NCBI GenBank assembly: GCA_038128225.1
Contig: JAYPJF010000001.1
Location: 240,419 to 304,418, forward strand
Source of the DNA: a bacterium
GTDB taxonomy: Bacteria; Patescibacteriota; Minisyncoccia; Phycocordibacterales; UBA2100
DNA length: 64,000 bases
Reading direction: 5' to 3'
The notes beneath the pieces are model-generated. The model was not told where the DNA came from. It saw nothing but the letters and a program-made list of their open reading frames with translations, and searched no databases. The number at the start of each line of letters is the position of its first letter. The stretch's first letter is position 1. Made by a program: the position numbers and the translations under genes. This document shows positions 1 to 62,084 of the stretch, one piece after another.

Positions 1-8
1 GCGCGCCG

Positions 9-9000: not shown

Positions 9001-9569
9001 GTCAACAAAAACTCACGCTCGGTATCGAATGTGTCCGAGGAGGCACCGTGTTGGGTAAGCGCACGTGCGACATTCCTGTCGTGCGGCCGAGTGCAACAGT
9101 GGTTGTTGCGCCGTCAGCGGTAGCGCGCGGCGCGACGGCGCGCATTTCATGGAGCAGTGTTGAAACACTCGGAAGCGCAGATGCATGTCGCCTCTACGGT
9201 CCTGAGTCCGCGTTACTCGACACAGGAAAAGCAACAGGCGAAGCGTTCACGCCCCCGCTGAGGCGGAACACAGAATTCGCGCTTCAATGTGACACCAAAG
9301 GAGGCGGGGTATTACTCCATAAATTCATCATTTCGGTACTCGATGACACCGGGGATGCGGTAAAAGTTATTATCCCCGCGCGCACACAAGCATCGGTGAT
9401 GTCTACGGAAAATACGAGCGCAGAAGAATTTTTAGGATCAAACACGGGTTCACAAACGACTGGCAGCGGTGGATTCACTGGCACAAGCGGGGGTACTACG
9501 GTGGAGTTGTGTAATCCGGAAGATGGCATCTATATCTTCACTCAATGTATTCTAAACAGTTCGATATAG
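9..9569 (+). CDS. giant secreted/surface protein (3186 aa inside window; N-terminus probably continues upstream of window start)
   Basis: One uninterrupted 9.5-kb ORF. Reading frame is open back to position 3 and the first in-window Met has no signal peptide, so the gene is probably 5'-truncated by the window. N-terminal ~400 aa Pro/Thr/Gly/Ser-rich low complexity, long middle region with helical/coiled-coil-like composition, acidic Gly/Asp/Thr linker, then C-terminal Cys-framed repeats (..TVSWGCYGEA..IECVRGG..; ..ISWSSVETLGSADACRLYGP..FALQCDT..). Function unknown. Confidence 0.8.
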   Translation: MISHAVPPPPGGAPTPSTAAPTEGSTETSEDAANKGEKKPETAVKEENDPCKKAPNSVECENQLKSGKKPKCGTVTYQLPDGSSIKCAKAAPKNGSCTQDTSAKVCSQTDLGRGETYPGSADTNPTYKPPSTGEASVDPGDAFGEVDPGESYGFDPDFDPGKAIEESGSIKPGVSGTTETPEIKYASPEEFLYNGSKPSAEFVQAALKSLGPGGSFTPLSNFSSDLSSFYFPPSSGLGSVRLDPTIDYGSFGSFTAPSTFSAMPRAVPTVPVTDFQTFAPPSITYSSLAGSDFAFDPATGLWADGLGAISDTGSPFGRVVFEDPSVGTGFSFSSAAGFPEAALTGTAIDVEKGGAGALSALEGTAADYFGTAGTDLSKAFDLNSQAGITVIADTAVATEVPGTFLADPKVTLADITGAVLKGDLFEGGRLIGQGVRGLYGDLARRFEGASDLFASYLPWTQNTLTTLDGVDEFAPGTILGGFDSIGTESVNGIPGYESPLTSEFVIIDATGDIVSVTSAPTQNFPTTIDDLIAVGEARGVSGESYDPKTGTYSYDPEQEGGLVPGVSFASADEVAAPVNSEIQNPEMGGSAARKAWNDYIDASSRLAQLEASSVSDPLAVAGYERELEAARARVAALDPSRSRLSISDQYFRTAAVDFDALEQQAVEDPNTLFGTDFTPNPENAAAVRRLVDYNNAIATDQAIFSQKVKHLNALVADNELMYNMQDAIKTELARERSESFWKSALELNTLNPWGDFRHQQLEELQGAIDTNIGLIDWASGSCPECYDALYGTAADTQAEVVAQKQLLQYARDRGGSVTKWELARVTDDFGNLIGSPPSPEEYARNVWGVGVDETGVPIVPALETKRSEAGQLANYVLTGQTPADPTLAAELVAATGGAERDARRAVVDDTVPWFSKPITWLNNQAEALNEYAVQPWHYDPESGTIIEHSIGGRVLGFVGGALADEVAGVGQSVGIYGENLFGTEGAPNMTTLLSEAEASRRMIRTLPQNILVDTGEAALTAFDIAVPYVGVGPDMWRVGKSAASAIGVRIAEGPALAPPGFGWLVRGAESLAPPPISLGTLSPEVAVVSPSAFPATPGVAADYAPVVISGRSGATATVPPAPRVSAADSLMGSGGPSLSSGISPAVVKNTAPSARKISDTPAVPRAGSAPASSVSVPELGDLAGAETGPFSTSLFPRVREAWREFGAPIRMPSSAAFSPSPLQLLEGASEGLGGVVKLGQAVASDVYDLGVRAFGLAEAPSPTVLFPTPASVDEIVKLAEQADGLAVIAAGSSDFAASARFSEARALLNQALESFKAGDTGVAAQLAREGAEKLDTGARIFAPNAAENGLNAFIAHVDEVRLSSVAEVPVAPVMPAGGSLTGAGRDLSTGSRVSGLNVVAEPEGLGSGGVRAAADVSTTPSPNALIDDSIGTPSLGEGVTNNPTLNRLLGYRGPKGETLHLVEEGWNLALNKDLPFTYPDSRAFPRAQRPEYTRNLDDLIKTVVDDVNGPIISDTFASHAERSIWRYQILEPLDPEAAMLLQRNFLRTNRFSSIRSAMETVIGGSERYGVNSAFVQNLKNAVAKIEDLQAGYEQLPLAQKVERARAIRSIAKEAFIDEVAPYLKNAPLTNTGEGSLIPTTVPSETAQKSLVGRVMETARTSVLAAFLLTNGDVLARPFTMLDDALGVPMVSRVVDDVFGINPAAAADGNPADIGVMKSAIGKLKGQGTLDELSLIRNDPERLAIVMSTVYDELESAGRLAPQFKSKKEFFAFANAMITREIEVPSLASFGINGSGLGQLTGTGIRGVWGTDLPYAMSIIRRNDSVNLVTSLTLLNKEVLENGTLYLGARGYNGNPVLRNAYGKQVVELTVMYENALDTVFVTPDAAIEETLGAARRYAPKTAEAGEWAEVIRAQARILGGTDMEPILVAGRSANTPMGPILASLAPPQPIEIVPVSAVGGGKVVVGNTPAVTPGVTAVVARTESGVNTGVRASASTPTLAALIEEGTEALRTLTGLPRALVDEVPARAPTPVESSGSLVALRPRTPRVEGLPESIAARADETGEGALLGVPDELSSGTVNGGAASFKNLLDRADGIVFSGTVDDGIGAGASLDDVSSAGVESIARRFAPKPPSTLAAERPSLFSRFFGDRGAESVSAVDVDAAIRGLGPRGTTGIIDEPIGSASVGVSENVIGDVAVIGDELGELPAFLRGGDLPPNVQGVLDSLTPDAVEIEAIPASTGRALAVLGSAPEEIVLSSRWLDAEARLLKAQTGTVGEGVIALPDLGVVDEVVDLARFIEDPIGAGALLPEPRVTTARPTVGTSFDDTVRDMTERAGRAAAADLAGTLNARADALMKEAAAARAYVTSIDSYGMTPRARIFESASASYDVAAREMREAAIRLDETLALSLDDAVELGRDAERAALRGREAAIEAYRLAQIGRFADDAVVLRELGITPTIAADVAPLSSAFRSLEAVPTSHAVLAGVPGGPTSGALSDGVARMAESIGGAGQSLRQWVTRTLQDSAVSLDSMTRSALAYRNIFDNLLERGAASSERGFANIDNILRRMNETVSESMDVRVVRDARTDLSYARSLARVRESAHRLEALTDLGRSAELIRAADRYADAVRSFDESIAALDRAEQVTTSAARRGYVEGAVWNGTQARAAIQDAERILAQTDTAATTWRDRIKRLYPLAAVLLLDDDTTQNPGGISPEFSETHIDSCEGGTCVLTDISTGEKFLVSGVDFSDVVRSGIVCNETGCQLYIEREGKGAEALSLESGRDGALFPKSEESFGGSGEEDTTVLGVAAVTESDTGDALADDGVAGEEGDATRSDDTGGERTDIIPEGTGDDSTGGVADAKDDGGGDGASDATASGSGDATGGTTPGVGGGGASSGGGEGLSGLLNNLLSMLSGKQQSASGGSENPEVLPPAAPTKPRLSCADVIALVKPHGESVGEGKTTVSWGCYGEATAARGIGFKLGATESNSGAASGSFVVPVKDTGQQKLTLGIECVRGGTVLGKRTCDIPVVRPSATVVVAPSAVARGATARISWSSVETLGSADACRLYGPESALLDTGKATGEAFTPPLRRNTEFALQCDTKGGGVLLHKFIISVLDDTGDAVKVIIPARTQASVMSTENTSAEEFLGSNTGSQTTGSGGFTGTSGGTTVELCNPEDGIYIFTQCILNSSI

Positions 9570-9573
9570 AACA

Positions 9574-10038
9574 TTAGAAACCAAGCGCTTCGAAAAGCGT
9601 GAAAGTCCACGGCTCGGTAAGCTCGACTTCAGGAACGCGGCGCGCGCGGAGGAATGCGCGCACTTCTGCCGGGTCGATTCCCTCAACAGGAATAATAATG
9701 TCGGGATTCATAAAGCGAGGGGTGTCGAGAAGGAGTGTAGCGCCGTCTTCATGTTCGCGAACCCAAAATGCGTACATCTCCGGGTAACGAAACGTAAGGT
9801 CGTCAATATGAAATCCGTTTTCATCGAGTTCAAAAATAACGAGCCGTGGCTCACGCATCGCAAACATCCCAAGAGTGAATGCGGCAATGGCAATCAATAG
9901 TGCGAATAAGAAATTTTGAAACAAAATGGCTGTGAGCGCGCTCGAGACAGCGATGACGCCTAACGCCCAGTACCAATCGGCGCCACGCTCAGTATGTTTG
10001 TGCTCGGGTGCTTCCCAGCGAAGTTTCTGGGCGGGCAT
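9574..10038 (-). CDS. hypothetical membrane protein (two predicted TM helices + soluble C-terminal domain), immediately downstream of pilin gene on same strand
   Basis: ORF 154 aa; hydrophobic stretches WYWALGVIAVSSALTAILF and FLFALLIAIAAFTLGMFAM; 3-bp gap to pilin gene suggests co-transcription. No recognisable family. Confidence 0.5.
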   Translation of the reverse strand: MPAQKLRWEAPEHKHTERGADWYWALGVIAVSSALTAILFQNFLFALLIAIAAFTLGMFAMREPRLVIFELDENGFHIDDLTFRYPEMYAFWVREHEDGATLLLDTPRFMNPDIIIPVEGIDPAEVRAFLRARRVPEVELTEPWTFTLFEALGF

Positions 10039-10041
10039 ATT

Positions 10042-10449
10042 TTATGGAGTTGAAACGTTACTGCATCCGGCGCTGTAATTGGGGATCGTGTCAGTTTCGA
10101 GGCAAAAAGTTATTGAGTATGAAGACCCGCCTGCATCTGATTGGTAATCATATGTATATGTTGGATACTGAGGATCCAGCGGGATGGTTGGTAACGCATC
10201 AGCGGCAACGAGCGCGCTTGAAACCGCATCTGCCCCGGTGAGTGGCGTGCTAGCCACCGCAATAGGAAACGTGCTATTCAAAATAGTATACAAACCAAGT
10301 GCGTTGTGGAGTTCTTGCACGTCTTGCATTCTTCGAGCATCGCGACCGCGTTTCCGTACTTCGTTGTACGATGCGAGCCCGATCGCGGTGAGCATTCCGA
10401 TAATGGCGATTACCACCAGGAGTTCGATAAGTGAAAATCCGCGCGACAT
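10042..10449 (-). CDS. type IV pilin-like protein (prepilin with class III signal peptide)
   Basis: Internal Met start gives MSRG|FSLIELLVVIAIIGMLTAIGL: short basic leader, Gly-Phe cleavage site, Glu at +5, hydrophobic helix = canonical type IV prepilin N-terminus. The longer ORF (to 10575) adds 42 non-pilin residues and is rejected. Confidence 0.8.
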   Translation of the reverse strand: MSRGFSLIELLVVIAIIGMLTAIGLASYNEVRKRGRDARRMQDVQELHNALGLYTILNSTFPIAVASTPLTGADAVSSALVAADALPTIPLDPQYPTYTYDYQSDAGGSSYSITFCLETDTIPNYSAGCSNVSTP

Positions 10450-10488
10450 ACCAGAATTGTAGTATGGCTCAGAGTCTGTCTCAATACT

Positions 10489-11556
10489 ATGATAGTGTAT
10501 ATGGCTTTCGAAACACGAAAACAACAAGGAGAACATCACCCGCTTGTGGTCACTATTGGCGGCGGAACGGGGCACTTCGTGCTTCTTTCGGGATTAAAGG
10601 AAAAACCGGTACGCATTTCAGCAATCGTATCAATGGCTGACGATGGCGGTTCTTCTGGAGCATTAAGAGATGAAATGGGTGTTCTTCCGCCAGGGGATGT
10701 GCGCCAATGTCTTGCGGCGCTTTCGTACGAAACTCCAGTGTTGCGCGAATTGTTTAGCTACCGTTTTCCTGATGGGCCAGCAAAGGGGCATGCGTTTGGC
10801 AATTTGTTTTTATCCGCACTCGAGCGTGTCACAGGGAGTTTTGCTGAAGCAGTGCGCGAGGCTGCGCGCATTCTTGCCGTTGCGGGTGAAATTATTCCCG
10901 TAACAGGCGAAGATATGCGTCTTCGCATTCAGCTTAATGATGGCACTCATGTAGTGGGGGAACATTTTCTTGATAACAACGAGCATGTGCGCGAAGTGGG
11001 GGTACAAGGTATTGCGCTTGAACACCCGGTGAGCGCTGATCCAGTTGCTGTCAGTCGAATTTTAGAAGCTGACATCATTGTTATTGGTCCTGGAGATTTA
11101 TACGGAAGTGTAGTGCCACCGATACTCATCCCCGCCATTGCGCGTGCGCTGAGAGAAAGCAAGGCACATATGGTATATGTGGCGAATTTGACAAACAAAC
11201 GCGGACAAACGGAAGGATTCCAAGCACGAGATTACGTGCGAGTACTCCATCACTATATCGGTTCGCATGTAATCGATACGGTGATTTGTAACAATGAAAA
11301 ACCGCCCGTGCATTTAGCGGCGCGGTACGAAGAAAGAGAAGGGAAAGGCATGTTTGTTGAATGCGGGCGTAGCCCACACGATCCTTATGAGTGTGTAGAG
11401 AAAAACATCCTCTCGTCAGACATGCATGTGGTACACCACTTTGAAGCACAGGGTTCTGTGCGGTCGTTTATTCGCCACGACCCTACGAGATTGGCGTCGG
11501 CGTTGATGGAAATTATCGAACGATATTATCCAAGCTCCAGTGGCCAGGACCGGTAA
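10489..11556 (+). CDS. YvcK/CofD-like protein (UPF0052 gluconeogenesis-factor family)
   Basis: VVTIGGGTGHFVLLSGLK near N-terminus and overall length ~350 aa match YvcK/CofD-like 2-phospho-L-lactate transferase fold family. Start could be 10489 or 10501. Confidence 0.7.
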   Translation: MIVYMAFETRKQQGEHHPLVVTIGGGTGHFVLLSGLKEKPVRISAIVSMADDGGSSGALRDEMGVLPPGDVRQCLAALSYETPVLRELFSYRFPDGPAKGHAFGNLFLSALERVTGSFAEAVREAARILAVAGEIIPVTGEDMRLRIQLNDGTHVVGEHFLDNNEHVREVGVQGIALEHPVSADPVAVSRILEADIIVIGPGDLYGSVVPPILIPAIARALRESKAHMVYVANLTNKRGQTEGFQARDYVRVLHHYIGSHVIDTVICNNEKPPVHLAARYEEREGKGMFVECGRSPHDPYECVEKNILSSDMHVVHHFEAQGSVRSFIRHDPTRLASALMEIIERYYPSSSGQDR

Positions 11557-11884
11557 GAGCGAGTCCTAAAAATCCAAACGCGAGACCCCAGTCGCGCACA
11601 CCCACCGCAGTAAGGCCAAGCGAGAGGGCGATCAGTGCCAGATGCACACCCATTACCGTTGCACTTATGCGCGTAAAGAGGCCGAGTAAAAGCAAAAGAC
11701 CAAACGCGACCTCAGCAGCACCGTTCATGAGCACAAGGGTTTTGGCGTCCACCAGAAGAGTTGTGGTCGCGATGTCGGGCACGTATCCTACCCAAGAGAG
11801 CGGGTCAATAAGCTGTTGTGCACCGAACCATAACAAGACACCACTCAATCCCAATCGGATGATGAGTAATCCGTACGAGGTCAT
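11513..11884 (-). CDS. DoxX-family membrane protein
   Basis: Small 4-TM protein with DoxX-like pattern (GLLIIRLGLSGVLLWFGAQQL..); start chosen at Met that abuts the stop of the upstream cytochrome b5-like gene. Confidence 0.55.
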   Translation of the reverse strand: MTSYGLLIIRLGLSGVLLWFGAQQLIDPLSWVGYVPDIATTTLLVDAKTLVLMNGAAEVAFGLLLLLGLFTRISATVMGVHLALIALSLGLTAVGVRDWGLAFGFLGLALTGPGHWSLDNIVR

Positions 11885-11885
11885 G

Positions 11886-12368
11886 TTACTGCGCGTACGC
11901 TCCCTCATTCACTCCTTCACGCATCAAGCGGTTCTCTTGCTTTGTTCCGTGTTTTTTATTAAACGCCGCAGTGAACTCGTCAGCGGTGCCGCAATAAGGA
12001 GCGATTGCACCGGCTGATCCAGGGTGTCTCGGTAACCAATTGGTGATGTCGTACACAACTCCTTTATAAGCGACCCAACAGTCTTTCTGTGTATTGTGTG
12101 TTGCGAGTACCGAACGGGTGATTGCTTGTGGCGCGGTTCCGGTTCCTTGTGTTGCTGGTGGTGTACTTGGCACAGTTGCCGTAACGTCGGCAGAAGATCC
12201 TTGGCTCGGCGTCGGGTTCTCGTCGGTGACTGTACCCACGACAGGTGTATCGCTATCAAAAGGACTGGTCTCCTCTTGTTGGGAAGTGGAGGTGGTCGGT
12301 GCTTGCATTTGCCAGGCAAAGAGCCCTCCTGCCAAAATAATAATTCCGACTAGAAATAAGTATTTCAT
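11886..12368 (-). CDS. secreted/membrane-anchored cytochrome b5-like heme-binding domain protein
   Basis: N-terminal hydrophobic anchor, Thr/Pro/Ser linker, then DCWVAYKGVVYDITNWLPRHPGSAGAIAPYCGTADEFTAAFNKKHG, matching the cytochrome b5 heme-binding signature (..DCW..KVYD(V/I)T.F...HPGG...aG.DaT..F....H). Confidence 0.65.
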   Translation of the reverse strand: MKYLFLVGIIILAGGLFAWQMQAPTTSTSQQEETSPFDSDTPVVGTVTDENPTPSQGSSADVTATVPSTPPATQGTGTAPQAITRSVLATHNTQKDCWVAYKGVVYDITNWLPRHPGSAGAIAPYCGTADEFTAAFNKKHGTKQENRLMREGVNEGAYAQ

Positions 12369-12565
12369 GATGGTTGTTTTATTGATAACTATACTTTGTT
12401 AGCCCTATTCGAGCTGGTGCGTCTACCAGGCACACCTCGATACAGTACCATAAGAATAATGATGACAACACTCTCGCGACGCATAAGAATATTCGGCGAC
12501 GCAGTAAACGAACTCGCGCACACTCTCATGTGTGCAAACTGATAGTATGACACTACACTAAGACT

Positions 12566-13621
12566 ATGCGAAGAGTTGTTTTTATCGTGCTTTTTGCTTG
12601 TGTGTTTTTTTGCGTGGGCGCTTCATATGTGGTTGGCCTATCTGTAGAAGAAGCGGTTCCGAAGCGTGGTGTTGTTGTTCCGCAATTGTTGCAAGAAGAA
12701 GCGCCATGTCCTGATTCGCTCTTGTGTTGGCAGGAATTTTATGAGAACGCAGCACAAAAAAATCCCCTGCGCGCTCTCCAGGATCTTAAGGCACGCTACC
12801 TCGAAAGGGGAGATGTGCTGCAAAATTGTCACACACTACTGCATGTGGTTGGGCGCGCTGCGGCCGCGCATTACGGTTCGGTTGCGCGCGCATACAAGTA
12901 CGGTGACATGTTTTGTCGCTCAGGGTATTACCACGGCGTTCTTGAACACGTATTTGCTGACCAAGATCCACAACAAGCACTCGTCGGGCTGGATGCGATT
13001 TGTGAAAAAGTACCAGGAAAAAATACACGTTCGTACGATTATTTTGCGTGTGTCCACGGCGTCGGGCACGGACTCATGGCGCTTTATGAACACGAACTTT
13101 TTGACGCGCTTAAAGGGTGTAAACATTTGACTGGTGAGTGGGAGCAGTCTGCGTGCTACGGGGGCGTGTTCATGGAAAACGTAATTGCAGACACCAATGA
13201 TGTGCCGTCGCTGTATCTTGACCCTGAAAATTTAGTCTACCCGTGTGATGTTGTGGATGAAGAAGAGCGAGGGCAGTGTTTTATGATGCAAAGCTCTTAC
13301 ATGCTCAAGAAAAATGGAGGCAACTTTATCGATGCGTTTGAACGCTGCGCGAATGTTGATGAAAAATTTAAAAGCACTTGTTTTTTAAGTATTGGGCGCG
13401 ACGCATCTGGCTGGGGAGGGGCGCGCGTTGAGGCAACGGCAAACTACTGTTTGAAGGGGCGCACTTATGAAGAACGAAGCTACTGTTTCTGGGGCGCTGC
13501 CGATGATTTTGTAGCGCAATATGATTCAGATGCAGAAGCAAAGCAATTGTGCGAGAAGTCTGACGCCGAGTTTGTTTCGCATTGCAAAAAGCTGGTTGGG
13601 GATTACTATGCGACATTTTGA
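12566..13621 (+). CDS. secreted cysteine-rich hypothetical protein
   Basis: N-terminal signal peptide (MRRVVFIVLFACVFFCVGASYVVG), >20 Cys spread over 351 aa, no recognised family. Confidence 0.5.
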   Translation: MRRVVFIVLFACVFFCVGASYVVGLSVEEAVPKRGVVVPQLLQEEAPCPDSLLCWQEFYENAAQKNPLRALQDLKARYLERGDVLQNCHTLLHVVGRAAAAHYGSVARAYKYGDMFCRSGYYHGVLEHVFADQDPQQALVGLDAICEKVPGKNTRSYDYFACVHGVGHGLMALYEHELFDALKGCKHLTGEWEQSACYGGVFMENVIADTNDVPSLYLDPENLVYPCDVVDEEERGQCFMMQSSYMLKKNGGNFIDAFERCANVDEKFKSTCFLSIGRDASGWGGARVEATANYCLKGRTYEERSYCFWGAADDFVAQYDSDAEAKQLCEKSDAEFVSHCKKLVGDYYATF

Positions 13622-13674
13622 TTTTTTTGGAAATCGTGGTACGAAGATTAGAGTGTAGTGTATGGAGGCTTCCA

Positions 13675-14061
13675 ATGGCGAGGACTAAAGATTCTGCTCG
13701 TGTCGTGAAAGCGTATGTGACGTCACATAAAGTCCCCAAGAAGGACTTCAAAAAATTGGTCGGCACTGTGCGGGCGACGTTCGAGAAGCTTGGGCGTACG
13801 TCTGCGACCAAGACGCGAATACCAGCAGTCTCGATTGAGGCGTCGGTTCTATCCAATAGAATTGCATGTCTCGAATGTGGGCGCTGGTACAAGACACTCA
13901 AGCCCCATATTCGCCTCACACATAATATGACTGTCGAACAATACAGGAAGCGGTGGGAACTTCCATTCAGCTATCCGTTTGTGGCGCCAGAATACAGGCA
14001 GAAACGGTCACTGCTTTCTCGAAAAGCCGCACTCAGGCAGAAGTTCGAGCGAAATTCGTAG
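13675..14061 (+). CDS. MucR/Ros-family zinc-finger transcriptional regulator
   Basis: C-terminal IACLECGRWYKTLKPHIRLTHNMTVEQYRKRWELPFSYPFVAPEY matches the Ros/MucR C2H2-type motif (CLECG..fK.LKrHL...H.mtp.eYR.kW.LP..YPmVAp.Y). Start set at Met 13675; the longer ORF from 13582 overlaps the preceding gene. Confidence 0.7.
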   Translation: MARTKDSARVVKAYVTSHKVPKKDFKKLVGTVRATFEKLGRTSATKTRIPAVSIEASVLSNRIACLECGRWYKTLKPHIRLTHNMTVEQYRKRWELPFSYPFVAPEYRQKRSLLSRKAALRQKFERNS

Positions 14062-14078
14062 GTTTTTGAGTACATATA

Positions 14079-14108
14079 AGCAGCCCCGTGTGGGCTGCTC
14101 TGTTTTTG
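14079..14108 (+). terminator. intrinsic terminator after MucR-like gene
   Basis: AGCAGCCC-cgtgt-GGGCTGCT hairpin followed by ctgTTTTTg. Confidence 0.55.
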
Positions 14109-14212
14109 CTACTTCCGATTTTTCTAGCGATGCGCAAATTTAACAAGTTTAACGATAAATACATATTGACAAACGATAAGATGCAAACTAGGGCTTCTAC
14201 GTTACGGCAAAT

Positions 14213-14470
14213 ATGACGCTACGCTTGGCAAAACGAGCGAAAGCTATATTTGAAAGTTCGCAACCAGAGGAAAAACGCAAACTTTTGAGTTTCTTACTTG
14301 CGAACTCAACACTGCACGGAAAAAACCTAACGTTTACAATGCGTTCTCCCTTTGATGTGATGTTTTCTAATACCCATCATATGACTATGCGGCGAGAGTT
14401 AGATGCTGTTAGAACGTACTTTCAGAGTAGCAAAAATCATGAGTTATTCCCAAATTTCGCTATTTCCTAA
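14213..14470 (+). CDS. small hypothetical ORF (85 aa), possibly a gene remnant
   Basis: Only ORF in the 400-bp gap between the MucR-like gene and the methyltransferase; no family recognised; overlaps the methyltransferase stop. Confidence 0.25.
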   Translation: MTLRLAKRAKAIFESSQPEEKRKLLSFLLANSTLHGKNLTFTMRSPFDVMFSNTHHMTMRRELDAVRTYFQSSKNHELFPNFAIS

Positions 14471-15116
14471 ACTCAAAGACGTAAAAGTTGAAATCCTCTT
14501 TGTGTGGTTTTTTGTAAGTATTGGCTAGTGCGTACCCATTTTCTTTAGCCAACTTGAAAGGAAGACCGACATCAATATCTGCAAAGTCTGCCCAACCAAA
14601 GTAGATCTTTCCGTTCGGTTTGAGATACGCACCAACCTCCTTGAAAAACTTTTGCTTCGTCTCGTCTTCTGGGTCCCAAAACATCCGATCGATATTATCT
14701 CGCACCTCATGCTTTGTGTAAGGCGGATTACAGATAATAACATCGAATTGTCCTTCTACTTTTTCAAATACATTCGATAAGAAAAAACTGACATTTGTAA
14801 CACCTTGCGCTTGCGCATTGCGCCTACTGTTTTCTACTGCTCGCTCATTGATATCTATCCCAACTCCTTGTGCTGCACGTTTCGCAGTTGCAATCGAAAC
14901 TACTCCTGTACCGCATCCAATTTCCAAGAAGTTCTGATTTTTCGTGATCTCTACTGATCCCGCCATCAAATCAGAGTCACCAGAGGTTTGATAAACTCCC
15001 GGTTCCACTATGATTTTCATACCACAGCATTCAACTTCAAAAGGTTGACCAGTGTGTCTTTCCTCCAGTCTGTTCGCTTGACGAGGGATCGAATAAAAAT
15101 CGCTCTGTTTGATCAT
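14460..15116 (-). CDS. class I SAM-dependent methyltransferase, MTS-domain type with NPPY motif
   Basis: EIGCGTGVVSIA (SAM-binding motif I) and DVIICNPPY (motif IV typical of N6-adenine / N5-glutamine / rRNA m2G methyltransferases). Substrate cannot be assigned from sequence. Confidence 0.7.
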   Translation of the reverse strand: MIKQSDFYSIPRQANRLEERHTGQPFEVECCGMKIIVEPGVYQTSGDSDLMAGSVEITKNQNFLEIGCGTGVVSIATAKRAAQGVGIDINERAVENSRRNAQAQGVTNVSFFLSNVFEKVEGQFDVIICNPPYTKHEVRDNIDRMFWDPEDETKQKFFKEVGAYLKPNGKIYFGWADFADIDVGLPFKLAKENGYALANTYKKPHKEDFNFYVFEFRK

Positions 15117-15205
15117 TTCTTTATTTTATCAAAAATTATGTAATAAGTTCGAATCCCTCTTTCCTCAAACAAAAACAACCCTATGAATAAGGGTGTTTCT
15201 GACTG

Positions 15206-15290
15206 CGGAGAGGGTGGGATTCGAACCCACGGTCCCTTGCGAGACTCTTGTTTTCAAGACAAGTGCGATAGACCACTCTGCCACCTCTCC
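15206..15290 (-). tRNA. tRNA-Ser (anticodon TGA)
   Basis: Reverse complement reads GGAGAGG-TG-...-CTTGT-CTTGAAA-ACAAG-(long variable arm AGTCTCGCAAGGGAC)-GTGGG-TTCGAAT-CCCAC-CCTCTCC-G; 7-bp acceptor stem, TPsiC box, long extra arm typical of Ser. Confidence 0.85.
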
Positions 15291-15391
15291 ATTCCTTTCC
15301 CAAACGCGACACAATTTTCTGGAAATAGGAAATCCAGTTACTGCATAGTACGTATTTCTTGTATTACCGCAAATAATGCTATGCTTCCTGG

Positions 15392-15820
15392 GTGAAATAC
15401 ATAGGCTTAGATTTCGGAGAGAAACGAATTGGTATTGCGATCTCTGATGAAAACGGGACAATTGCGTTTCCGCACTCAGTTGTTCCAAATAACCAAGATG
15501 CCGTTAAGACCATATTGGATTTAGTCGAACATGTCCGAGCAGGGTCAGTTGTTATTGGTGATACAAAAACAGGTTCGGGAGAACCTAATAGTGTCACACA
15601 TAAGCTTAAGGAATTCATTGAACCACTTACCGCGGCTGGCTGCACCATCACCACAGTGCCCGAACTTGGTTCAACAGGGGCAGCCCGCGCGGTTTTTGCG
15701 CACGCGGAAGGAGCACCGCGAGGGGAAGTGCAATCTCCGGTATACCACACTATTGATAACCTTGACGCGCAAGCGGCGGCCGTGATTCTGCAGCGCTATT
15801 TAGATATACACAAGCGCTAA
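15392..15820 (+). CDS. ruvX: Holliday-junction resolvase-like RNase YqgF/RuvX
   Basis: N-terminal MKYIGLDFGEKRIGIAISD is the YqgF/RuvX signature. Confidence 0.85.
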   Translation: MKYIGLDFGEKRIGIAISDENGTIAFPHSVVPNNQDAVKTILDLVEHVRAGSVVIGDTKTGSGEPNSVTHKLKEFIEPLTAAGCTITTVPELGSTGAARAVFAHAEGAPRGEVQSPVYHTIDNLDAQAAAVILQRYLDIHKR

Positions 15821-15839
15821 ATACATACTCGATAAATCT

Positions 15840-16808
15840 GTGTACTATTACGGCATGCAGCAAATTTCCAGTGCTCGTGCGTGGATTGTAGTGCACGTTG
15901 TCGTGGCAGCGTTCTTTTATATGACATTTGTCAGTAGTGCATCTGCGGCAGGGTGCGACGCGGCGTATAAGCAGTGTATAGGACAGCCTGGTGCGAGTAA
16001 GTCCGCATGTATCGGGCAATGGAAATCATGCTTAACAGGACAGTGCATGAAGAGTGGGAACATATGCAATCAAGACTCTGAGTGTCAGATGTATTGTACA
16101 GAGGAAGGAACTTCAACTGGCGGAAAAATCTCATGTTGCTCAGGTGGACCGCAGATAGAACCGGGAGCTCCTAACCCGTGCCCTGACAAGATTGATGGTA
16201 AGTGTGAGGCAAAAATGCCGGAAATGATGATGGGAATGATGATGGGTGCGCCGATGCTTCCCATGCTTCCTATGATGATGCCGAAGATGGATATGCCAAT
16301 GATGATGATGCCAGACCCGTGCGAGACGGGCGGGTTTCGCTCAATTAGTGCTGATGGTACAGACCCGTGCGCAACAAAAAAGGATAAAAAATCGGCAAGT
16401 ACTACCGATGACACGCTTAAGAAGATTAAGGATGTCGCGGGGAAAAAAGATGAAACAGGGAAGTCGTATACGGAAGAGGACACTGCAAAAGAAGCAAAAG
16501 GACTTGGTTCTGTATTCGGGGCTTTCTTTGAAGGTGTAGACACAACATCTGCGCGTGACGGAGGAGACAAAACACAAGACACAACCAGCGGAGCTCTTAA
16601 CACATTTGGAAATGCCGTTTTGGGACAACAAAACACCACCGCTGTTTCTCAAACAATCGCACAGATAACCCAGGCAGTGCGCTCCGTTGCACAAACGATC
16701 ATTACAGGGTTTGACACGCTCGGTGCGCCTGCAGTGCAGCAGTTACAAAACGCACTTTCAGCAGCCACACTCGTTTTAAAGAGCCTCCTTGGTAGTCTTG
16801 GGCTCTAA
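15840..16808 (+). CDS. secreted Cys-rich / Met-rich protein (possible metal-binding)
   Basis: Hydrophobic N-terminus, ~20 Cys in first 120 aa (CDAAYKQC..CIGQWKSC..CMKSGNIC..CQMYC..), then MPEMMMGMMMGAPMLPMLPMMMPKMDMPMMMMPDPC, then Lys/Thr/Asp-rich tail. Confidence 0.55.
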   Translation: MYYYGMQQISSARAWIVVHVVVAAFFYMTFVSSASAAGCDAAYKQCIGQPGASKSACIGQWKSCLTGQCMKSGNICNQDSECQMYCTEEGTSTGGKISCCSGGPQIEPGAPNPCPDKIDGKCEAKMPEMMMGMMMGAPMLPMLPMMMPKMDMPMMMMPDPCETGGFRSISADGTDPCATKKDKKSASTTDDTLKKIKDVAGKKDETGKSYTEEDTAKEAKGLGSVFGAFFEGVDTTSARDGGDKTQDTTSGALNTFGNAVLGQQNTTAVSQTIAQITQAVRSVAQTIITGFDTLGAPAVQQLQNALSAATLVLKSLLGSLGL

Positions 16809-16824
16809 TTGTTATACTGGCGCG

Positions 16825-17154
16825 ATGGTGACATACGAAGATTTCGCGGCACTTGAGTTTCGCGTTGGGCTAATACGCTCCGCAGAGCGTGTCCCAGAAA
16901 CGGACAAACTCATCAAATGTACGATTGATTTTGGACCTGAGATCGGCGAACGAACCATTGTTTCAGGAATTGCTGCGTGGGTTACTCCTGAGTCATTGGT
17001 TGGCAAAAAATTACCGTATATTGTTAATCTTGAACCGCGGGTTATCAAGGGGATTGAAAGCCAAGGTATGCTCCTCGCACTCTCTTATGGTGAGCGCTTG
17101 TCGCTTTTAGTACCAGAAAATACTGACGTGCCGCCTGGAACGCGTATTAAATAG
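16825..17154 (+). CDS. tRNA-binding domain protein (CsaA/Myf/EMAP-II-like OB fold)
   Basis: FAALEFRVGLIRSAERVPETDKLIKCTIDFG...RTIVSGIA...LVGKKLPYIVNLEPRVIKGIESQGMLLA matches the tRNA-binding domain found free-standing or at the MetRS C-terminus. Confidence 0.7.
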   Translation: MVTYEDFAALEFRVGLIRSAERVPETDKLIKCTIDFGPEIGERTIVSGIAAWVTPESLVGKKLPYIVNLEPRVIKGIESQGMLLALSYGERLSLLVPENTDVPPGTRIK

Positions 17155-17157
17155 TGC

Positions 17158-17781
17158 ATGATAAAAAGTATTGAGGGGTTGGGTGTACGTGCGTATGAGC
17201 AGACGAAATTGTGGTGGCGGTATATAGAGCAGAAACTACGTGGGCAGTACGCGTTGGCGTGGTTCGGCGTTTTTTCTTTTGCTGAATCAATCTTCATCCC
17301 GTTTCCTGTCGACCCGTTAATGGGGGTTATGGTTGCTGCAAATCGGGCACGGTGGTGGTGGATCGGGTTGTTCACATCAATCACTTCAACACTTGGGGCA
17401 GCGTGCGGGTACTTGATCGGGGCCTATGGGCTCGGGTTGATCGAATTTTTTGCAGGATCAGCCGATCGGGCGCATTGGTTTTCGTTTGCCGAACGCACGT
17501 TTGTTGACAACACGGCGCTTCTTTCATTTGCAGCGGCGTTCACTCCTTTGCCTAATGGTCCAGTCGTCATTGCTGCGGGAGTTTTCGGGTCACCTATCGT
17601 AGCTTTTTTGGCTGCATGGTTTGTTGGAAGAACATTACGGTTTCTTGCAGTTGCGTACGTTGTCTATGAGTATGGAGAACGAGAACGTTCGTTACTACGC
17701 CGCACATTTTTTATCGGCACGACAGTACTTGCGGTCATGGTGCTTGGGATAGTGATCTACCAGGCTGTTCGTGCTCTCTAA
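17158..17781 (+). CDS. DedA/YqaA-family (VTT domain) membrane protein
   Basis: Multi-TM, ~200 aa, FAESIFIPFPVDPLM...G motif characteristic of DedA/SNARE-associated family. Confidence 0.6.
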   Translation: MIKSIEGLGVRAYEQTKLWWRYIEQKLRGQYALAWFGVFSFAESIFIPFPVDPLMGVMVAANRARWWWIGLFTSITSTLGAACGYLIGAYGLGLIEFFAGSADRAHWFSFAERTFVDNTALLSFAAAFTPLPNGPVVIAAGVFGSPIVAFLAAWFVGRTLRFLAVAYVVYEYGERERSLLRRTFFIGTTVLAVMVLGIVIYQAVRAL

Positions 17782-17811
17782 AACACTCTTGTTGTAGAGT
17801 ATACTAGTTCC

Positions 17812-18948
17812 ATGCACCCCGTATCTCTGCATGAAGAGCTCCTTTATGGGCGTGCGCGTGTGCACGAACACCCTGTATGGAAGCACTGGTTTCCGATTCC
17901 TCGCGTGTTTAATGCGCCGACACCGGGAATCGATATTTCTGACAGCTCAGTAAAGGCGATCACACTGAAACCCGCACGTTCCCGCGGATTTACTGTCGAG
18001 TTGTGTGTGTCTGAAAATGTGCCCGAGGGGACGGTTGTAGGCGGATTGGTGCGCGACCCGGAACGGTTGGGGGGAGTGTTGAAGACGTTATACGCAAAAA
18101 TGCCTCACGTGCATGGTGCCCACGTTGCGCTACCTGAAGAAGGGGCTTACGTCTTTAATATGCACATTGTTGATGTTCGGGACCCGGCACAGGTGCGCAC
18201 CATGATTGAATTTGAAATGGAGGGACGTGTACCTCTCAAGCTCGAGCGTGCGCGATATGATTACGATGTGATCTCGATCCAAAATGATGGTATGGGTGCG
18301 GAGATAGCGGTGTATGTGTTCCCGGGTGACTTAGTGCAGGATTATCTCAGCGCGTTTGCCTATGCGGGCGTCCCTGTGCGCTCTATGGAACTAGAAGCAC
18401 GTTCGATTGCGCGGGCAATTATTCCACCACACGAGCGTCAAACATTTCTTATTGCAGATTTTGGGCGCGCTCGTACGGGAGTTGCTATCGTTAAAAACGG
18501 AATCCCAATATTTACGAGTACTGTCGAGGTTGGAGGTGATTCTATGACCCGTATTTTGACTGAACAATTTAAGATGCCAGTTGAAGAAGCAGAAAATGCA
18601 AAAAATGAGTATGGGATCGAACAAGCGGCAAAACCAGAGTTTGCCGAGGCAATGATTGGCACTGCCTCTGCGCTTGCTGATGAGATCATAAAACATTTCC
18701 GCTACTGGGATACAAGGCGCGACGAGCGGGGCGAACGGATCACGCCTGTTTCCGGTGTTCTGCTCGTGGGCGGTAGTTCGAACTTAAAGGGTTTGGAGAC
18801 CTATCTTGCGGGGCGTGTTCAGGCGCGCACGCAGCTTGCAAACGTCTGGCACAACGTGTGCCATTTCGATGACTATATCCCACCAGTCGATAAGCACCAC
18901 TCTCTAGGGTATGCGACTGCGGTTGGGTTGGCACTTCGCGACGTATAA
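17812..18948 (+). CDS. pilM: type IV pilus assembly ATPase-like protein PilM (actin-like)
   Basis: GIDISDSSVKAITLK near N-terminus and LLVGGSSNLKGLETYLAGRV near C-terminus (FtsA/PilM actin fold). The ORF has ~38 extra N-terminal residues, so the true start may be a non-ATG codon downstream. Confidence 0.7.
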   Translation: MHPVSLHEELLYGRARVHEHPVWKHWFPIPRVFNAPTPGIDISDSSVKAITLKPARSRGFTVELCVSENVPEGTVVGGLVRDPERLGGVLKTLYAKMPHVHGAHVALPEEGAYVFNMHIVDVRDPAQVRTMIEFEMEGRVPLKLERARYDYDVISIQNDGMGAEIAVYVFPGDLVQDYLSAFAYAGVPVRSMELEARSIARAIIPPHERQTFLIADFGRARTGVAIVKNGIPIFTSTVEVGGDSMTRILTEQFKMPVEEAENAKNEYGIEQAAKPEFAEAMIGTASALADEIIKHFRYWDTRRDERGERITPVSGVLLVGGSSNLKGLETYLAGRVQARTQLANVWHNVCHFDDYIPPVDKHHSLGYATAVGLALRDV

Positions 18949-18950
18949 TT

Positions 18951-19487
18951 ATGGCGCTCATTGTTCCTGCAGAGTTTGCGACAAACATGAAGTGGACCGT
19001 CACTGCACGGATTGTGTACCTTGTGTGCGTGATGGCTATTGCCGCGGCGAGCATGGTCATGCTCGCAACTTTGCCGGGGTATATAAACATGCGTTCAGAA
19101 AAGCAAAATCTCAGTACCGTTCTTGATGCAACAATGAAGAACGCTGAGGAACAAGAAAAAAACGCAGGACGGGAAACACTTCTCGGTAGCAAACGGCGAA
19201 TCGAAGCGCTTTCCGCAATTGTTGCGCCCACCGAGGCTTCTCGACATATTCTCGACGTGGTAAGCGTCAAACCCTCTGGAGTGGCGTTAACCGCCTTCTC
19301 GTATGTACACAAAAACGGTGAGGGTACATTGGTTGTATCCGGCACGGTTACATCGCGCGCCGCATTGTCGGGGTATGTGCAAGCACTTGAGGCAAGTAAA
19401 CGGTTTAGTTCTGTGGTTGTGCCTATCACAACATTAGCGCGCGTTGAAGAGGGCGAGTTTGACATAACGCTCTCGGGAAATTTTTAA
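18951..19487 (+). CDS. PilN-like pilus assembly protein (single N-terminal TM + periplasmic-type domain)
   Basis: Position directly after pilM, size 178 aa, one TM helix then coiled-coil; assignment by synteny and topology only. Confidence 0.45.
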   Translation: MALIVPAEFATNMKWTVTARIVYLVCVMAIAAASMVMLATLPGYINMRSEKQNLSTVLDATMKNAEEQEKNAGRETLLGSKRRIEALSAIVAPTEASRHILDVVSVKPSGVALTAFSYVHKNGEGTLVVSGTVTSRAALSGYVQALEASKRFSSVVVPITTLARVEEGEFDITLSGNF

Positions 19488-19489
19488 GT

Positions 19490-20011
19490 ATGCGCACACG
19501 AACGATAGTGATGATCAGTGTAAGCGTCGTAATAGCGACCGCGTCAGTGTGTGGCGCTGTGTATTTAATTCAAACAGTGCTTTTCAATAGAGCAGAGGCT
19601 GTGCGATTGTTTCAGGAGATTAACGCTGTAGACAAGCGAACGCAGCATATTTCTGCACTAAAACTAAGCGTGCGAGATACAAATGCCGAACGAGCTCGTC
19701 TTATGAATATTACCGATACGACGGTCGTAACTATCATCGATGATATTGAGGATGCCGCTGCCGCCGCAGGTGTCAAAAGTGTTGTTGATTCGATTTCACC
19801 GACCGAGGCACCGGCCGGTGACGTGTCGCTCTCAAGTTATCTTGTTTCGATTCGATCTGAAGGCCCGTTTACTGCGCTCATGCACGCACTCGCACTCTAC
19901 GAAACATTACCCGCCCCCATTATGGTCGAACAGGTCTTTATCGAACACACAGGCACTGCGTGGGCGATGTCAGTACGTGTGCGCGTACTTGTCGCAGAAA
20001 AAGACGTATGA
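19490..20011 (+). CDS. PilO-like pilus assembly protein
   Basis: Third gene of pilM cluster, 173 aa, single TM then coiled-coil and alpha/beta region; synteny-based. Confidence 0.4.
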   Translation: MRTRTIVMISVSVVIATASVCGAVYLIQTVLFNRAEAVRLFQEINAVDKRTQHISALKLSVRDTNAERARLMNITDTTVVTIIDDIEDAAAAAGVKSVVDSISPTEAPAGDVSLSSYLVSIRSEGPFTALMHALALYETLPAPIMVEQVFIEHTGTAWAMSVRVRVLVAEKDV

Positions 20012-20322
20012 GCATGCTAAAAAAATGTAGAATTGCGTGGACATATCGGGTAGATCCGGCTGCCGAACAATTTCTATTGCAACAACTATGGCTCTATGCG
20101 CTTATGGTATTTGCATGCGCAAGTATTTTTTCACTCGCGTGGGGAGCGTACATTTTTTTCATCCCCGTGAACCAGACGCAAATTGCTGATTCGGGCGGAG
20201 TGCCGGATGCTTTTGATCGGGAAGCACTCACGCAATTGCTCGCACGTTTCGATGAACGGGCAACAAAGCACGGTTCGCTTAAATCAACAAAGCCAACGGT
20301 TTCTGATCCGAGCAAGAATTGA
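20008..20322 (+). CDS. hypothetical small membrane protein, last gene of pilMNO cluster
   Basis: ATGA overlap with preceding stop; one TM helix (LWLYALMVFACASIFSLAWGAYIFFI); no family recognised. Confidence 0.4.
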   Translation: MSMLKKCRIAWTYRVDPAAEQFLLQQLWLYALMVFACASIFSLAWGAYIFFIPVNQTQIADSGGVPDAFDREALTQLLARFDERATKHGSLKSTKPTVSDPSKN

Positions 20323-20361
20323 CCAGACGACGTTCTCTAAGTACGATACCAGAACCCAGAA

Positions 20362-20433
20362 GCCCCCGTAGTTCAATGGATAGAACAGGGCTCTTCTAAG
20401 GCCTTAATGTGGGTTCGATTCCTACCGGGGGCA
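20362..20433 (+). tRNA. tRNA-Arg (anticodon TCT)
   Basis: GCCCCCG-TA-GTTC-AATGGAT-AGAAC-A-GGGCT-CTTCTAA-GGCCT-TAAT-GTGGG-TTCGATT-CCTAC-CGGGGGC-A. Confidence 0.8.
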
Positions 20434-20444
20434 CAAGAAGTAAT

Positions 20445-20517
20445 GGGCGCTTAGCTCAGTTGGTAGAGCAACCCGTTTACACCGGGAAGGTCAGGGGTTC
20501 AAGTCCCTTAGCGCCCA
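20445..20517 (+). tRNA. tRNA-Val (anticodon TAC)
   Basis: GGGCGCT-TA-GCTC-AGTTGGTA-GAGC-A-ACCCG-TTTACAC-CGGGA-AGGTC-AGGGG-TTCAAGT-CCCTT-AGCGCCC-A; anticodon loop assignment has one 27:43 mismatch. Confidence 0.75.
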
Positions 20518-20559
20518 CAAACGTTTGACGAAGACTGTATTGTTGCGTAGCGTAGTGAG

Positions 20560-21231
20560 ATGGCGCCGGTTAACTGTATCGGAATTATTCTCGATGGGAA
20601 TCGTCGATGGGCGCGAGAGCGTGGCCTCCCCGCGTTTGAGGGACACCGGCAAGGCTTTTTAAAGCTTAAGGAAACTGTTCGGTGGGTACGCGATCGCGCC
20701 ATCCCACACATGGTTGTGTATGCGTTTTCGACGGAAAACTGGGACCGCTCGCAAGAAGAAGTGGGGTATCTCATGGACTTGTTTCGCGAGCTTATCAATA
20801 AACAAGCACAGGAGCTAACAGCCGAAGGGGTAAAAATAAAAATTGTAGGACAGCGAGAACGGTTCGCGCAAGATCTTCAAGAAGGAATGGATCGTATAGA
20901 AAAAGAAAGTGCGCATAATGAGCGCGCTACGTTATGGGTATGTCTTTCTTATGGTGGGCGTGCTGAAATTGTGCAGGCTGTGCAAAAAGCCGCGGCGCAA
21001 GGAATAGTAAATGAAGAAACATTAAGTGCCTCACTGTGGACCACGGGTATGCCGGATCCTGACATCATCGTGCGCACGAGTGGCGAGCAACGACTTTCCG
21101 GTTTTCTCACATGGCAGAGCGTGTACAGTGAGCTTTTTTTCATCGAGCCTCATTGGCCGGATTTCAATGAAGCGCTTTTGGATGGGATACTGAATGAGTA
21201 TGCAGACCGAGAACGGCGGCACGGCAAATGA
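20560..21231 (+). CDS. uppS: undecaprenyl-diphosphate synthase (cis-isoprenyl transferase)
   Basis: IILDGNRRWARERGL, YAFSTENWDR and RTSGEQRLSGFLTWQSVYSELFF motifs. Confidence 0.85.
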   Translation: MAPVNCIGIILDGNRRWARERGLPAFEGHRQGFLKLKETVRWVRDRAIPHMVVYAFSTENWDRSQEEVGYLMDLFRELINKQAQELTAEGVKIKIVGQRERFAQDLQEGMDRIEKESAHNERATLWVCLSYGGRAEIVQAVQKAAAQGIVNEETLSASLWTTGMPDPDIIVRTSGEQRLSGFLTWQSVYSELFFIEPHWPDFNEALLDGILNEYADRERRHGK

Positions 21232-37779: not shown

Positions 37780-37784
37780 CTGCT

Positions 37785-38684: not shown

Positions 38685-38695
38685 TTTACAAACAT

Positions 38696-44706: not shown

Positions 44707-44740
44707 AGACGTATAATACGGCCAAGGGCGAATAAATAAT

Positions 44741-60569: not shown

Positions 60570-60728
60570 TGTACTTCAGTTAAACTGGCACCTAAGTACA
60601 CTCAGGTGTCATTACGATAATACCACGCTACAACGAGGCAGTGGTTTCCATGGTTGTGCACTTGCGGAATGAGCCTGTGTCCTATATATAATCTTACTAT
60701 CCGCTACACTTCGTTTCGAAGACACCTC

Positions 60729-61481: not shown

Positions 61482-62084
61482 ACATTCGTAGGGAGAAGGG
61501 TACTGAATTCTGGCTACGCGGCGGCTGTTATTTCTGGACAAAAACCCAGACTCTTTCGTGAATGCGATCTCGTGGCGAAAAGCTTTGACTTTGCAACGGT
61601 TTAGCGGTACCGTGTCCAGGACCACGTAGCTTGCGCCATTAGGCGTTTGCTGTGTTGGTTATCCACACGGGCAATAGTTTTTACGATGGTAGAGACTATC
61701 GCGACTGTATAATATTCGGAATGTGGGGATGCTACGTAAGTTTGTAGCGTCTTACACGTCTCTGTAACGGATGTTGTGGATGTTTTGAAAGAAGATCATT
61801 GACAATTTAATAAGGAATAAGCGAGTAGAAGTCTCGTGGTCAAAACTTCATCTTCAGCACATACAGATGTGTTCCGTCATTTCCGAAAGACCGCATGACC
61901 AAAACATTCATTGCTAACTTCGTTCGCACGAGTGCATCGTGAGCTCGAGATAGCATTAATCGTGTTTATTAGTGTCGGCATCGAAAGGTGCCAACGCATC
62001 ACTCTCCCGTCGAAGGAGAGTAGTGCAACCGGAGCTCTCACACATTTAGTAGTAAAAGAGCACTGGTTACCATTAGATAAAAAT

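Follow-up and report, generated by a model that had tools for sequence, protein, structure and literature searches.

Components of a probable secretin-independent type IVa-like pilus at two sites in a Patescibacteria genome

We analysed a 64-kb stretch of DNA from a Patescibacteria genome (contig JAYPJF010000001.1, positions 240,419 to 304,418; hereafter the window) that carries genes for a type IV pilin and for the pilus assembly proteins PilM, PilN and PilO. An earlier note on this DNA had sorted these genes into a pilin operon and a pilM-N-O-X operon beside a giant protein. The features of the region are listed below, with positions counted from the first letter of the window.

10042-10449, minus strand: pilin gene; the open reading frame (ORF) is 10042-10575 and the true start is the ATG at 10449; 135 amino acids
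10456-10484, minus strand: promoter-like site of the pilin gene, TTGAGA-17-TACAAT
17800-17805, plus strand: -10-like box of pilM, TATACT
17812-18948, plus strand: pilM, 378 amino acids, PilM_2 family
18951-19487, plus strand: pilN, 178 amino acids, Pfam PilN family
19490-20011, plus strand: pilO, named by predicted fold, 173 amino acids; gene callers take the ATG at 19511, which gives 166 amino acids
20008-20322, plus strand: X, small single-pass membrane protein of 104 amino acids; overlaps the pilO stop (ATGA)
9574-10038, minus strand: gene for a protein with two transmembrane (TM) segments (two-TM gene), 154 amino acids; its ATG lies 3 nucleotides (nt) past the pilin stop
1-9569, plus strand: giant secreted protein, 3204 amino acids (context only)

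Layout of the locus and its relatives

The genes that the earlier note described are all present, either at its coordinates or displaced by no more than a few codons. The four plus-strand genes pilM-N-O-X (17812-20322) are separated by gaps of 2 nt and 2 nt and then by a 4-nt overlap. The pilin start lies 7.4 kb from the pilM start, in keeping with the roughly 7 kb that the earlier note had given. Proteins identical to those of the window were found on Logan contigs from three sequencing runs. For PilM, we obtained 736 relatives, of which the named ones come from metagenome-assembled genomes (MAGs) of Candidatus Kaiserbacteria, Paceibacterota, Parcubacteria and the "Patescibacteria group" at 46-59% identity; in Kaiserbacteria and Paceibacterota, PilM relatives bear the public name "pilus assembly protein PilM." A scan of a genome collection using a PilM alignment as the query yielded 80 species-level loci from the same clade, and a single PilM sequence as the query yielded none. 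The set used for synteny comparisons comprised 86 related loci (about 80 species).

Across these loci, the order ruvX-tRNA_bind-pilM-pilN-pilO-X is nearly invariant, and pilM-N-O-X is kept in 84-85 out of 86: pilN directly follows pilM in 85, the PilO-like gene follows pilN in 85, and X was found after pilO in 84, using two rounds of hidden Markov model (HMM) searching. One syntenic relative (L004) carries the giant, two-TM, pilin, CofD, RuvX, tRNA-binding, VTT and PilMNOX genes with a spacing of only 3.5 kb between pilin and pilMNOX. Because L004 has this shorter spacing and the window has extra genes at 11.5-15.3 kb, the distance of 7.4 kb is specific to the window's lineage. The cofD-ruvX interval in question (11500-15300), which is not in L004, encodes DoxX, a cytochrome b5-like protein, a Ros/MucR regulator, a methyltransferase and tRNA-Ser, together with a 351-amino-acid Cys-rich secreted protein without a family. 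The block may be an insertion beside the tRNA, because the proportion of G and C falls to 0.44 at 14-16 kb.

The pilin, PilM, PilN, PilO and gene X

Read from the ATG at 10449, the pilin begins MSRG/FSLIELLVVIAIIGML (the slash marks the predicted cleavage site), with a leader of four amino acids and a mature pilin of 131 amino acids that starts at FSLIE and has two C-terminal cysteines. It is the sole ORF with a prepilin motif in a six-frame translation of the 64 kb. The protein matched Pfam N_methyl (E = 7e-7, 29 bits versus a cut-off of 21.2) and TIGR02532 (E = 7e-8), and Gly-1, Phe+1, Glu+5, Cys116 and Cys129 are invariant across 18 pilin orthologues. The two family matches and the invariant Gly-1, Phe+1 and Glu+5 bear out the textbook class III signal peptide that the earlier note had described. 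A profile of the pilin family also matched solved structures, namely Geobacter PilA (E = 2e-14), GspG (E = 5.5e-13, positions 7-107) and Thermus PilA (E = 1.3e-11), as well as Neisseria PilE and Pseudomonas PilA. As judged from its sequence, the product of 10042-10449 is a true type IVa-like pilin with a predicted class III signal peptide and a four-residue leader.

PilM matched Pfam PilM_2 (PF11104) with E = 5.5e-34 and 118 bits versus a cut-off of 27, the alignment covering residues 39-377 of the protein and positions 1-339 of the 340 in the model. It also matched TIGR01175 (E = 5e-32), with a score of 111 that is under the cut-off of 133. PilN passed the threshold of Pfam PilN (PF05137) marginally, at 24.6 bits versus a cut-off of 22.8, and has a short N-terminus followed by one TM segment. 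Its orthologues start with M[SAT]N[LVI]LP, the PilM-binding motif, in which Asn occupies position 3 in at least 90%. The PilN family gave a weak full-length profile match to Myxococcus xanthus PilN (3jc8_Na, E = 0.062).

The product of the third gene was recognised by its modelled structure. An AlphaFold2 model built with 17 relatives (predicted local distance difference test score, pLDDT, of 83.3) starts with a long helix, after which comes a domain of alpha-beta-beta-alpha-beta-beta topology. The top matches in a Foldseek search of the PDB were PilO structures: 2rjz from Pseudomonas aeruginosa (E = 2.9e-6, probability 1.00), 3jc8_Oa from M. xanthus and 5uvr, a PilO core on which the template-modelling score was 0.65. 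Sequence identity to solved PilO proteins is 13-16%. After the PilO structures, Foldseek gave Amuc_1100, XcpY (GspL) and PulM (GspM), and T2SSM_b was matched by 3 out of 55 PilO-like orthologues. In a word-indexed search, the PilO-like protein found itself only; an alignment query found 17 relatives, none of them named, and hhalign detected no similarity between the PilO-like family and PilN. The predicted protein thus has the fold and architecture of PilO (TM helix, coiled coil, ferredoxin-like domain), yet fails the Pfam PilO sequence test. Assignment of the genes at 18951-20322 led to no unrelated families, with PilN placed by HMM and PilO by fold; HMM, fold and comparative tests agree with the earlier description of pilM followed by N-like, O-like and small TM genes.

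Several of these matches could point to a type II secretion-like pseudopilus for protein export instead of a surface pilus. The best curated HMM for the pilin is that of GspG (TIGR01710, E = 4e-10), solved GspG is among the top profile matches, and XcpY/GspL and PulM are among the structures matched by the PilO-like fold. However, the GspG score of 39.7 is far under the cut-off of 88.85, PilM and PilN are encoded by separate genes, as in type IV pili (T4P), and not as a fused GspL, and PilO structures rank above GspL and GspM. No secretin or other Gsp genes were seen in the window. In addition, pili have been seen on cells of bacteria of the candidate phyla radiation (CPR), and CPR systems are treated as T4P (PMC6744442, PMC11623550). 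We therefore consider a pseudopilus very unlikely.

The fourth gene, X, most likely starts at the ATG at 20008, which was called on contigs of the same organism and overlaps the pilO stop, and not at the GTG at 19960. In its product, a basic N-terminal stretch, which in relatives holds an RHEPE motif, precedes a single TM helix; a short extramembrane helix and a terminal DPS[KR] complete the protein. Pro17, Trp28 and Arg84 never vary, and the Pro in the C-terminal DPS almost never does. Neither a Pfam scan of 56 X orthologues nor a PDB sequence profile search returned a match. The possibility that X is a truncated copy of PilN was ruled out, as an hhalign comparison of X with PilN found no similarity. 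X is a real, conserved and unnamed gene that is specific to this lineage. Its place in the gene order suggests that it may encode an extra subunit of the PilMNO complex. It is conceivable, though rather unlikely, that X is a new fourth subunit that replaces PilP in a secretin-less machine.

Upstream of these genes, we observed conserved promoter-like boxes. In 71 out of 75 related loci, a TATAAT or TATACT box stands 6-8 nt ahead of the pilM ATG, compared with about 6% expected for any TAnnnT at four positions; in the window, the arrangement is TATACT-agttcc-ATG, with 6-nt spacing. Likewise, the pilin ATG is preceded at 6-8 nt by TACAAT, or in one case TACACT, in 16 out of 17 loci (the window and 15 out of 16 orthologous loci). 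The window's own site, TTGAGA-17-TACAAT, stops 6 nt short of the pilin ATG and is the best-scoring promoter-like site in 9400-20700, with 10 out of 12 matches. Because conserved -10 boxes stand 6-8 nt before the pilin and pilM ATGs, the sequence suggests two separate leaderless transcripts, one for the pilin (with the two-TM gene) and one for pilM-N-O-X.

Other genes of the window have a similar layout. Hexamers resembling -10 boxes (TACAAT, TATACT, TACACT, TATGAT, TACTAT) occur 6-7 nt before many starts in the window without a Shine-Dalgarno sequence, namely at 10456-10461 and 17800-17805 and upstream of 10501, 12566, 15855 and 16825. Since these genes share the layout, it may be a genome-wide habit, which hints that many mRNAs of this genome are leaderless.

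The two-TM protein and its large convergent neighbour

The earlier note had the pilin followed by a two-TM protein of unknown family. The order on the same strand stands, whereas the family is related to DUF5673. The window protein itself has no Pfam match (no DUF5673 at E < 1) and so reaches no Pfam threshold, but 51 out of 99 sampled homologues matched DUF5673 (PF18923), with a best E of 4.1e-7. In an exhaustive search, at least 2097 clusters (formed at 50% identity) belonged to the family at E <= 1e-3. In an AlphaFold2 model (pLDDT 94, predicted template-modelling score 0.80), an N-terminal strand precedes a TM hairpin and a beta-sandwich resembling a pleckstrin homology (PH) domain. Compared with the PDB, the model produced only weak PH/PTB/FERM matches (E >= 0.024), and the family profile had no match among PDB sequences. 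The TM hairpin and PH-like sandwich are shared with DUF5673 and membrane-anchored bacterial PH-like proteins. By the positive-inside rule, the modelled PH-like domain would be cytoplasmic.

Such a protein might be a dedicated partner of the pilin, for example a chaperone, membrane receptor or assembly factor, which would make the pair a true pilin operon. Only 3 nt separate the pilin stop from the two-TM ATG, no separate promoter-like box precedes the two-TM gene of the window, and the two genes are probably co-transcribed there. A pilin lies directly upstream of the two-TM gene in 17 out of 49 related loci, and in all 49 the two-TM gene is less than 10 kb from pilM. By contrast, 32 out of these 49 loci have no adjoining pilin, and the two-TM gene of relatives usually carries its own TACAAT box. 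The family comprises at least 2097 clusters, and its more distant members adjoin unrelated genes (DUF5652/S20/RuvA, phosphoribosyltransferase, DUF1653). Moreover, the PH-like domain is predicted to be cytoplasmic, whereas the globular domain of the pilin faces outward.

On the strength of the synteny counts, the neighbourhoods of distant homologues and the promoter-like boxes of its own, we rejected the two-TM gene as a pilin partner, a role that we regard as distinctly improbable. The two-TM protein is most likely not a pilus component, and the pilin operon that had been proposed as a pilus unit is not conserved. Instead, the two-TM gene keeps company with a convergent gene for a large secreted protein more steadily than with the pilin; in 36 out of 42 loci with enough sequence, it and a gene for a large protein meet stop to stop.

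In the window, the large protein is the giant, and the stops of the two convergent genes are 4 nt apart. The giant does adjoin the pilus genes, as the earlier note said, but its length is 3204 amino acids and not 3186; the gene starts 54 nt before window position 9, as seen on a contig of the same organism (L087:5665-15279). Its N-terminus, MYPRVLLLCALLVIVSAP, is a Sec-type signal peptide, and the protein has no Pfam domain. The giant was also considered as a pilin-like protein in its own right; this was rejected, its true N-terminus being a Sec-type signal peptide without Gly-1. The C-terminal 300 or so amino acids (residues ~2880-3183), with paired Cys and immunoglobulin-like repeats, are shared with the convergent proteins of 580-1800 amino acids in relatives, and all large convergent proteins of the relatives link into one family through that C-terminal domain. 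With phmmer, no similarity to the giant family was seen for the large protein that lies convergent to a two-TM homologue of 35% identity (L091). Two homologues of the giant have further features: one (L010) carries DPBB_1 (lytic transglycosylase-like) and PG_binding_3 domains, and another (L036) ends in subtilisin-like sequence (GTSMAAPHVAG).

Further investigation revealed that most of the relatives' large convergent proteins (390-1219 amino acids; L014-L085) begin with [RQ]G/xS[IV]LAALVFVA[VI]LG, in which the Gly is invariant and Glu+5 is absent; examples are L016:5059-7209, L061:3746-6223 and L015:3158-5218. Using hhalign, we aligned these N-termini with the pilin family in register with Gly-1 (probability 81%, P = 1.3e-5), compared with probabilities of 0.4-4% for three TM families as controls. 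Support was not obtained from Pfam N_methyl (10 peptides), a local HMM of the pilin N-terminus (E >= 1) or a PDB profile search. The tip subunits GspK and PilX likewise have no Glu5. It is conceivable, though we think rather unlikely, that the pilin, the two-TM protein and the convergent large secreted protein make up a pilus accessory module, in which the large proteins would be modular, tip-borne and pilin-like, acting as host adhesins or wall-attacking modules. This idea fits the large-protein family more than the giant of the window, because the giant has a Sec-type signal peptide.

The other window genes are housekeeping genes, encoding tRNA synthetases, ribosomal proteins, RecA, FtsK, SSB, RecO, EF-P, UppS and RluA, apart from a few further reading frames. 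Together with the PilM relatives, this content marks the window as part of a small genome of the candidate phyla radiation. Between the pilin and pilM, 15855-16808 on the plus strand encodes a secreted protein whose N-terminal part is rich in Cys and which contains a marked run of Met-rich sequence, MPEMMMGMMMGAPMLPMLPMMMPKMDMPMMMMP; Pfam gave no match for it, and it was found in only 5 out of the 86 related loci. On the same strand, an open frame of at least 638 amino acids runs from 62079 to 64000 and past the window end; it opens with a signal peptide (MMKTLATNKVAAVVVGLGLVLAFGFAYATPAKA) and coiled-coil-like sequence, and is probably another large surface protein. Four sizeable ORFs (275-661 amino acids; 36706-39571, 43672-44853, 48193-50178 and 60654-61481) have no Pfam match at E <= 1e-3, and the ORF at 44741-46978 has weak Peptidase_C39-like and Big_13 matches.

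Missing machine parts and the reading of the locus

To complete the inventory of pilus genes, we scanned for the other machine parts. T2SSE, T2SSF, Peptidase_A24 and Secretin had no match among the window ORFs scanned or among Pfam calls on contigs of the same organism. A GspE-type ATPase motif was found in no frame of the window, and a GspE Walker A motif was found less than 10 kb from pilM in none of the 86 loci; over that distance, the relatives showed neither pilB/T/C/D nor a secretin gene. HMM scans and the ATPase motif search thus agree with the earlier statement that the window has no pilQ, pilB/T, pilC or prepilin peptidase gene. The conclusion once drawn from it, a secretin-less pilus in a monoderm envelope, fits what has been published on CPR bacteria (PMC6744442, PMC7143001), but the pilQ gap in the window is not evidence for it. 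A missing secretin in 64 kb proves nothing alone, because the obligatory pilB, pilC and pilD are not there either; the pilus genes are simply dispersed.

Published CPR genomes provide the frame for these parts. They encode pilins, PilB/T, PilC, PilM, PilN, PilO and PilD, but no PilQ (Meheust et al. 2019, PMC6744442), and a Microgenomates genome has the same pilus gene set without PilQ (PMC7143001). Patescibacteria MAGs encode PilB, PilC, PilM and PilO together with ComEC/ComFC (PMC8672522). In Saccharibacteria, genetic work showed that T4P drive host binding and twitching, with DNA uptake still open (PMC11623550). A secretin-less T4P, an envelope that is not of the Gram-negative type and a role in DNA uptake or attachment are thus already published for CPR bacteria, and a complete machine in the window organism is assumed from this literature.

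The reading that we hold with high confidence is that the region carries two separately transcribed parts of a secretin-independent type IVa-like pilus machinery typical of CPR/Patescibacteria, in a genome of the Candidatus Kaiserbacteria type. Behind it stand the assignment of the pilin, PilM, PilN and PilO by family or by fold, a gene order kept in about 80 species and the promoter-like boxes. Some results weigh against this reading. PilM and the pilin fall below strict NCBIfam equivalog cut-offs. The PilO-like protein has no Pfam or NCBIfam match, its family profile finds no PilO among PDB sequences, and Pfam PilO (PF04350) is reached by only 3 out of 55 orthologues, with a best E of 6.6e-4. 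The PilN motif of the window, MALIVP, is degenerate, with Leu for the near-invariant Asn and the Pro kept; by sequence, the PilM-binding peptide of PilN appears to have drifted in this organism. Motor, platform and peptidase genes were seen neither in the window nor less than 10 kb from pilM in any relative.

Decaying remnants of a pilus that no longer works would also explain the degenerate N-terminal motif of PilN and the fact that the window shows no genes for motor, platform or peptidase. However, all ORFs are intact, and gene order, key residues and promoter boxes are kept across about 80 species. Unused genes would also be expected to be lost quickly in such small genomes. Decay is therefore exceedingly unlikely, and we retain the secretin-independent T4P as the preferred reading.

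From these parts and by comparison with described systems, we infer how the pilin is cleaved and assembled, which proteins touch and that PilB, PilC, PilD and PilT are encoded elsewhere in the genome. The pilin would be inserted into the membrane and cleaved behind Gly4 by a prepilin peptidase (PilD) whose gene would lie elsewhere, and Phe1 would receive a methyl group. PilB and PilC would extrude the pilins into a polymer, in which Glu5 of one subunit would pair with the N-terminus of the next. The pilM-N-O-X unit would supply the alignment subcomplex of the membrane. On the cytoplasmic side, the actin-like PilM may clamp the N-terminal peptide of the single-pass PilN, which in turn may pair with PilO through coiled coils and ferredoxin-like outer domains. 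The resulting ring would surround the PilC platform and couple it to the PilB/PilT motors, and X would be a lineage-specific small membrane subunit beside PilMNO. The filament would cross the wall without a secretin, there being no outer membrane.

By analogy with other CPR bacteria, such a pilus could serve in host attachment, twitching and/or DNA uptake. A more specific proposal is that these genes build a dedicated DNA-uptake (competence) pilus, which concerns the main role and is compatible with a secretin-independent T4P. To our knowledge, PilM, PilN and PilO are not part of the ComG competence machines of Bacillus and Streptococcus, which counts against this proposal, and comEC, comEA, comFC and dprA were not found in the window. 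The earlier note had taken nearby ssb, recA, recO and ftsK as a hint of DNA uptake or attachment. These genes lie 27-40 kb from pilMNOX, among tRNA synthetase and ribosomal genes, and say nothing about function, because they are that far off and housekeeping in nature, and proximity is expected in a small genome. The proposal does gain from the facts that CPR bacteria cannot make nucleotides and widely carry ComEC, and that uptake through T4P has been proposed for them (PMC6744442, PMC8672522). In addition, one Saccharibacteria T4P locus adjoins recA, although the TM7x T4P mutants tested kept wild-type competence (PMC11623550). On balance, a dedicated uptake pilus is possible, if unlikely.

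Secretin-free T4P with PilM, PilN and PilO are also present in monoderm bacteria such as Clostridium and Streptococcus sanguinis, in which the pil genes mostly form one cluster with ATPase and platform genes (Melville and Craig 2013, cited in PMC6744442, describe such secretin-free systems). We know of no X homologue in these T4P. With the PilM/N/O/P subcomplexes of P. aeruginosa and M. xanthus (2rjz, 5uvr, 3jc8), the window shares the PilM family, the PilO fold and the order M-N-O, and its PilN orthologues share the N-L-L-P motif; unlike in those subcomplexes, no PilP lipoprotein or PilQ was seen, and the fourth gene encodes an unrelated single-pass protein of about 100 amino acids. The likeness to CPR T4P extends to the class III pilin, PilM/N/O, the lack of PilQ and the scattered loci (PMC6744442; TM7x T4P-1/T4P-2, PMC11623550). 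In TM7x locus 1 and the Microgenomates genome Ch65, however, pilMNO is co-localised with pilB/pilC/pilD/pilT, whereas pilMNO of the window stands apart. The window clade further differs from other CPR T4P in the conserved gene X after pilO and in its divergent PilN and PilO orthologues, which are "hypothetical" at NCBI.

Taking these comparisons together, the locus is an ordinary member of a system already described for its lineage, to which our analysis makes small additions: the fold-based naming of PilO, gene X, the predicted leaderless promoters, the correction concerning the two-TM protein and the pilin-like N-termini without Glu5. Motif and fold evidence allows the names PilN and PilO for the "hypothetical" genes after pilM in this clade, X and the conserved predicted leaderless promoter delimit the pilMNOX unit, and a pilus annotation is unwarranted for the two-TM neighbour. 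Beyond annotation, the significance is slight: the genome carries standard CPR pilus parts. The sole lead of wider interest is the tentative pilin-like start, without Glu5, of the relatives' large proteins, which, if real, would point to pilus-displayed adhesins or lytic modules in episymbiotic CPR bacteria.

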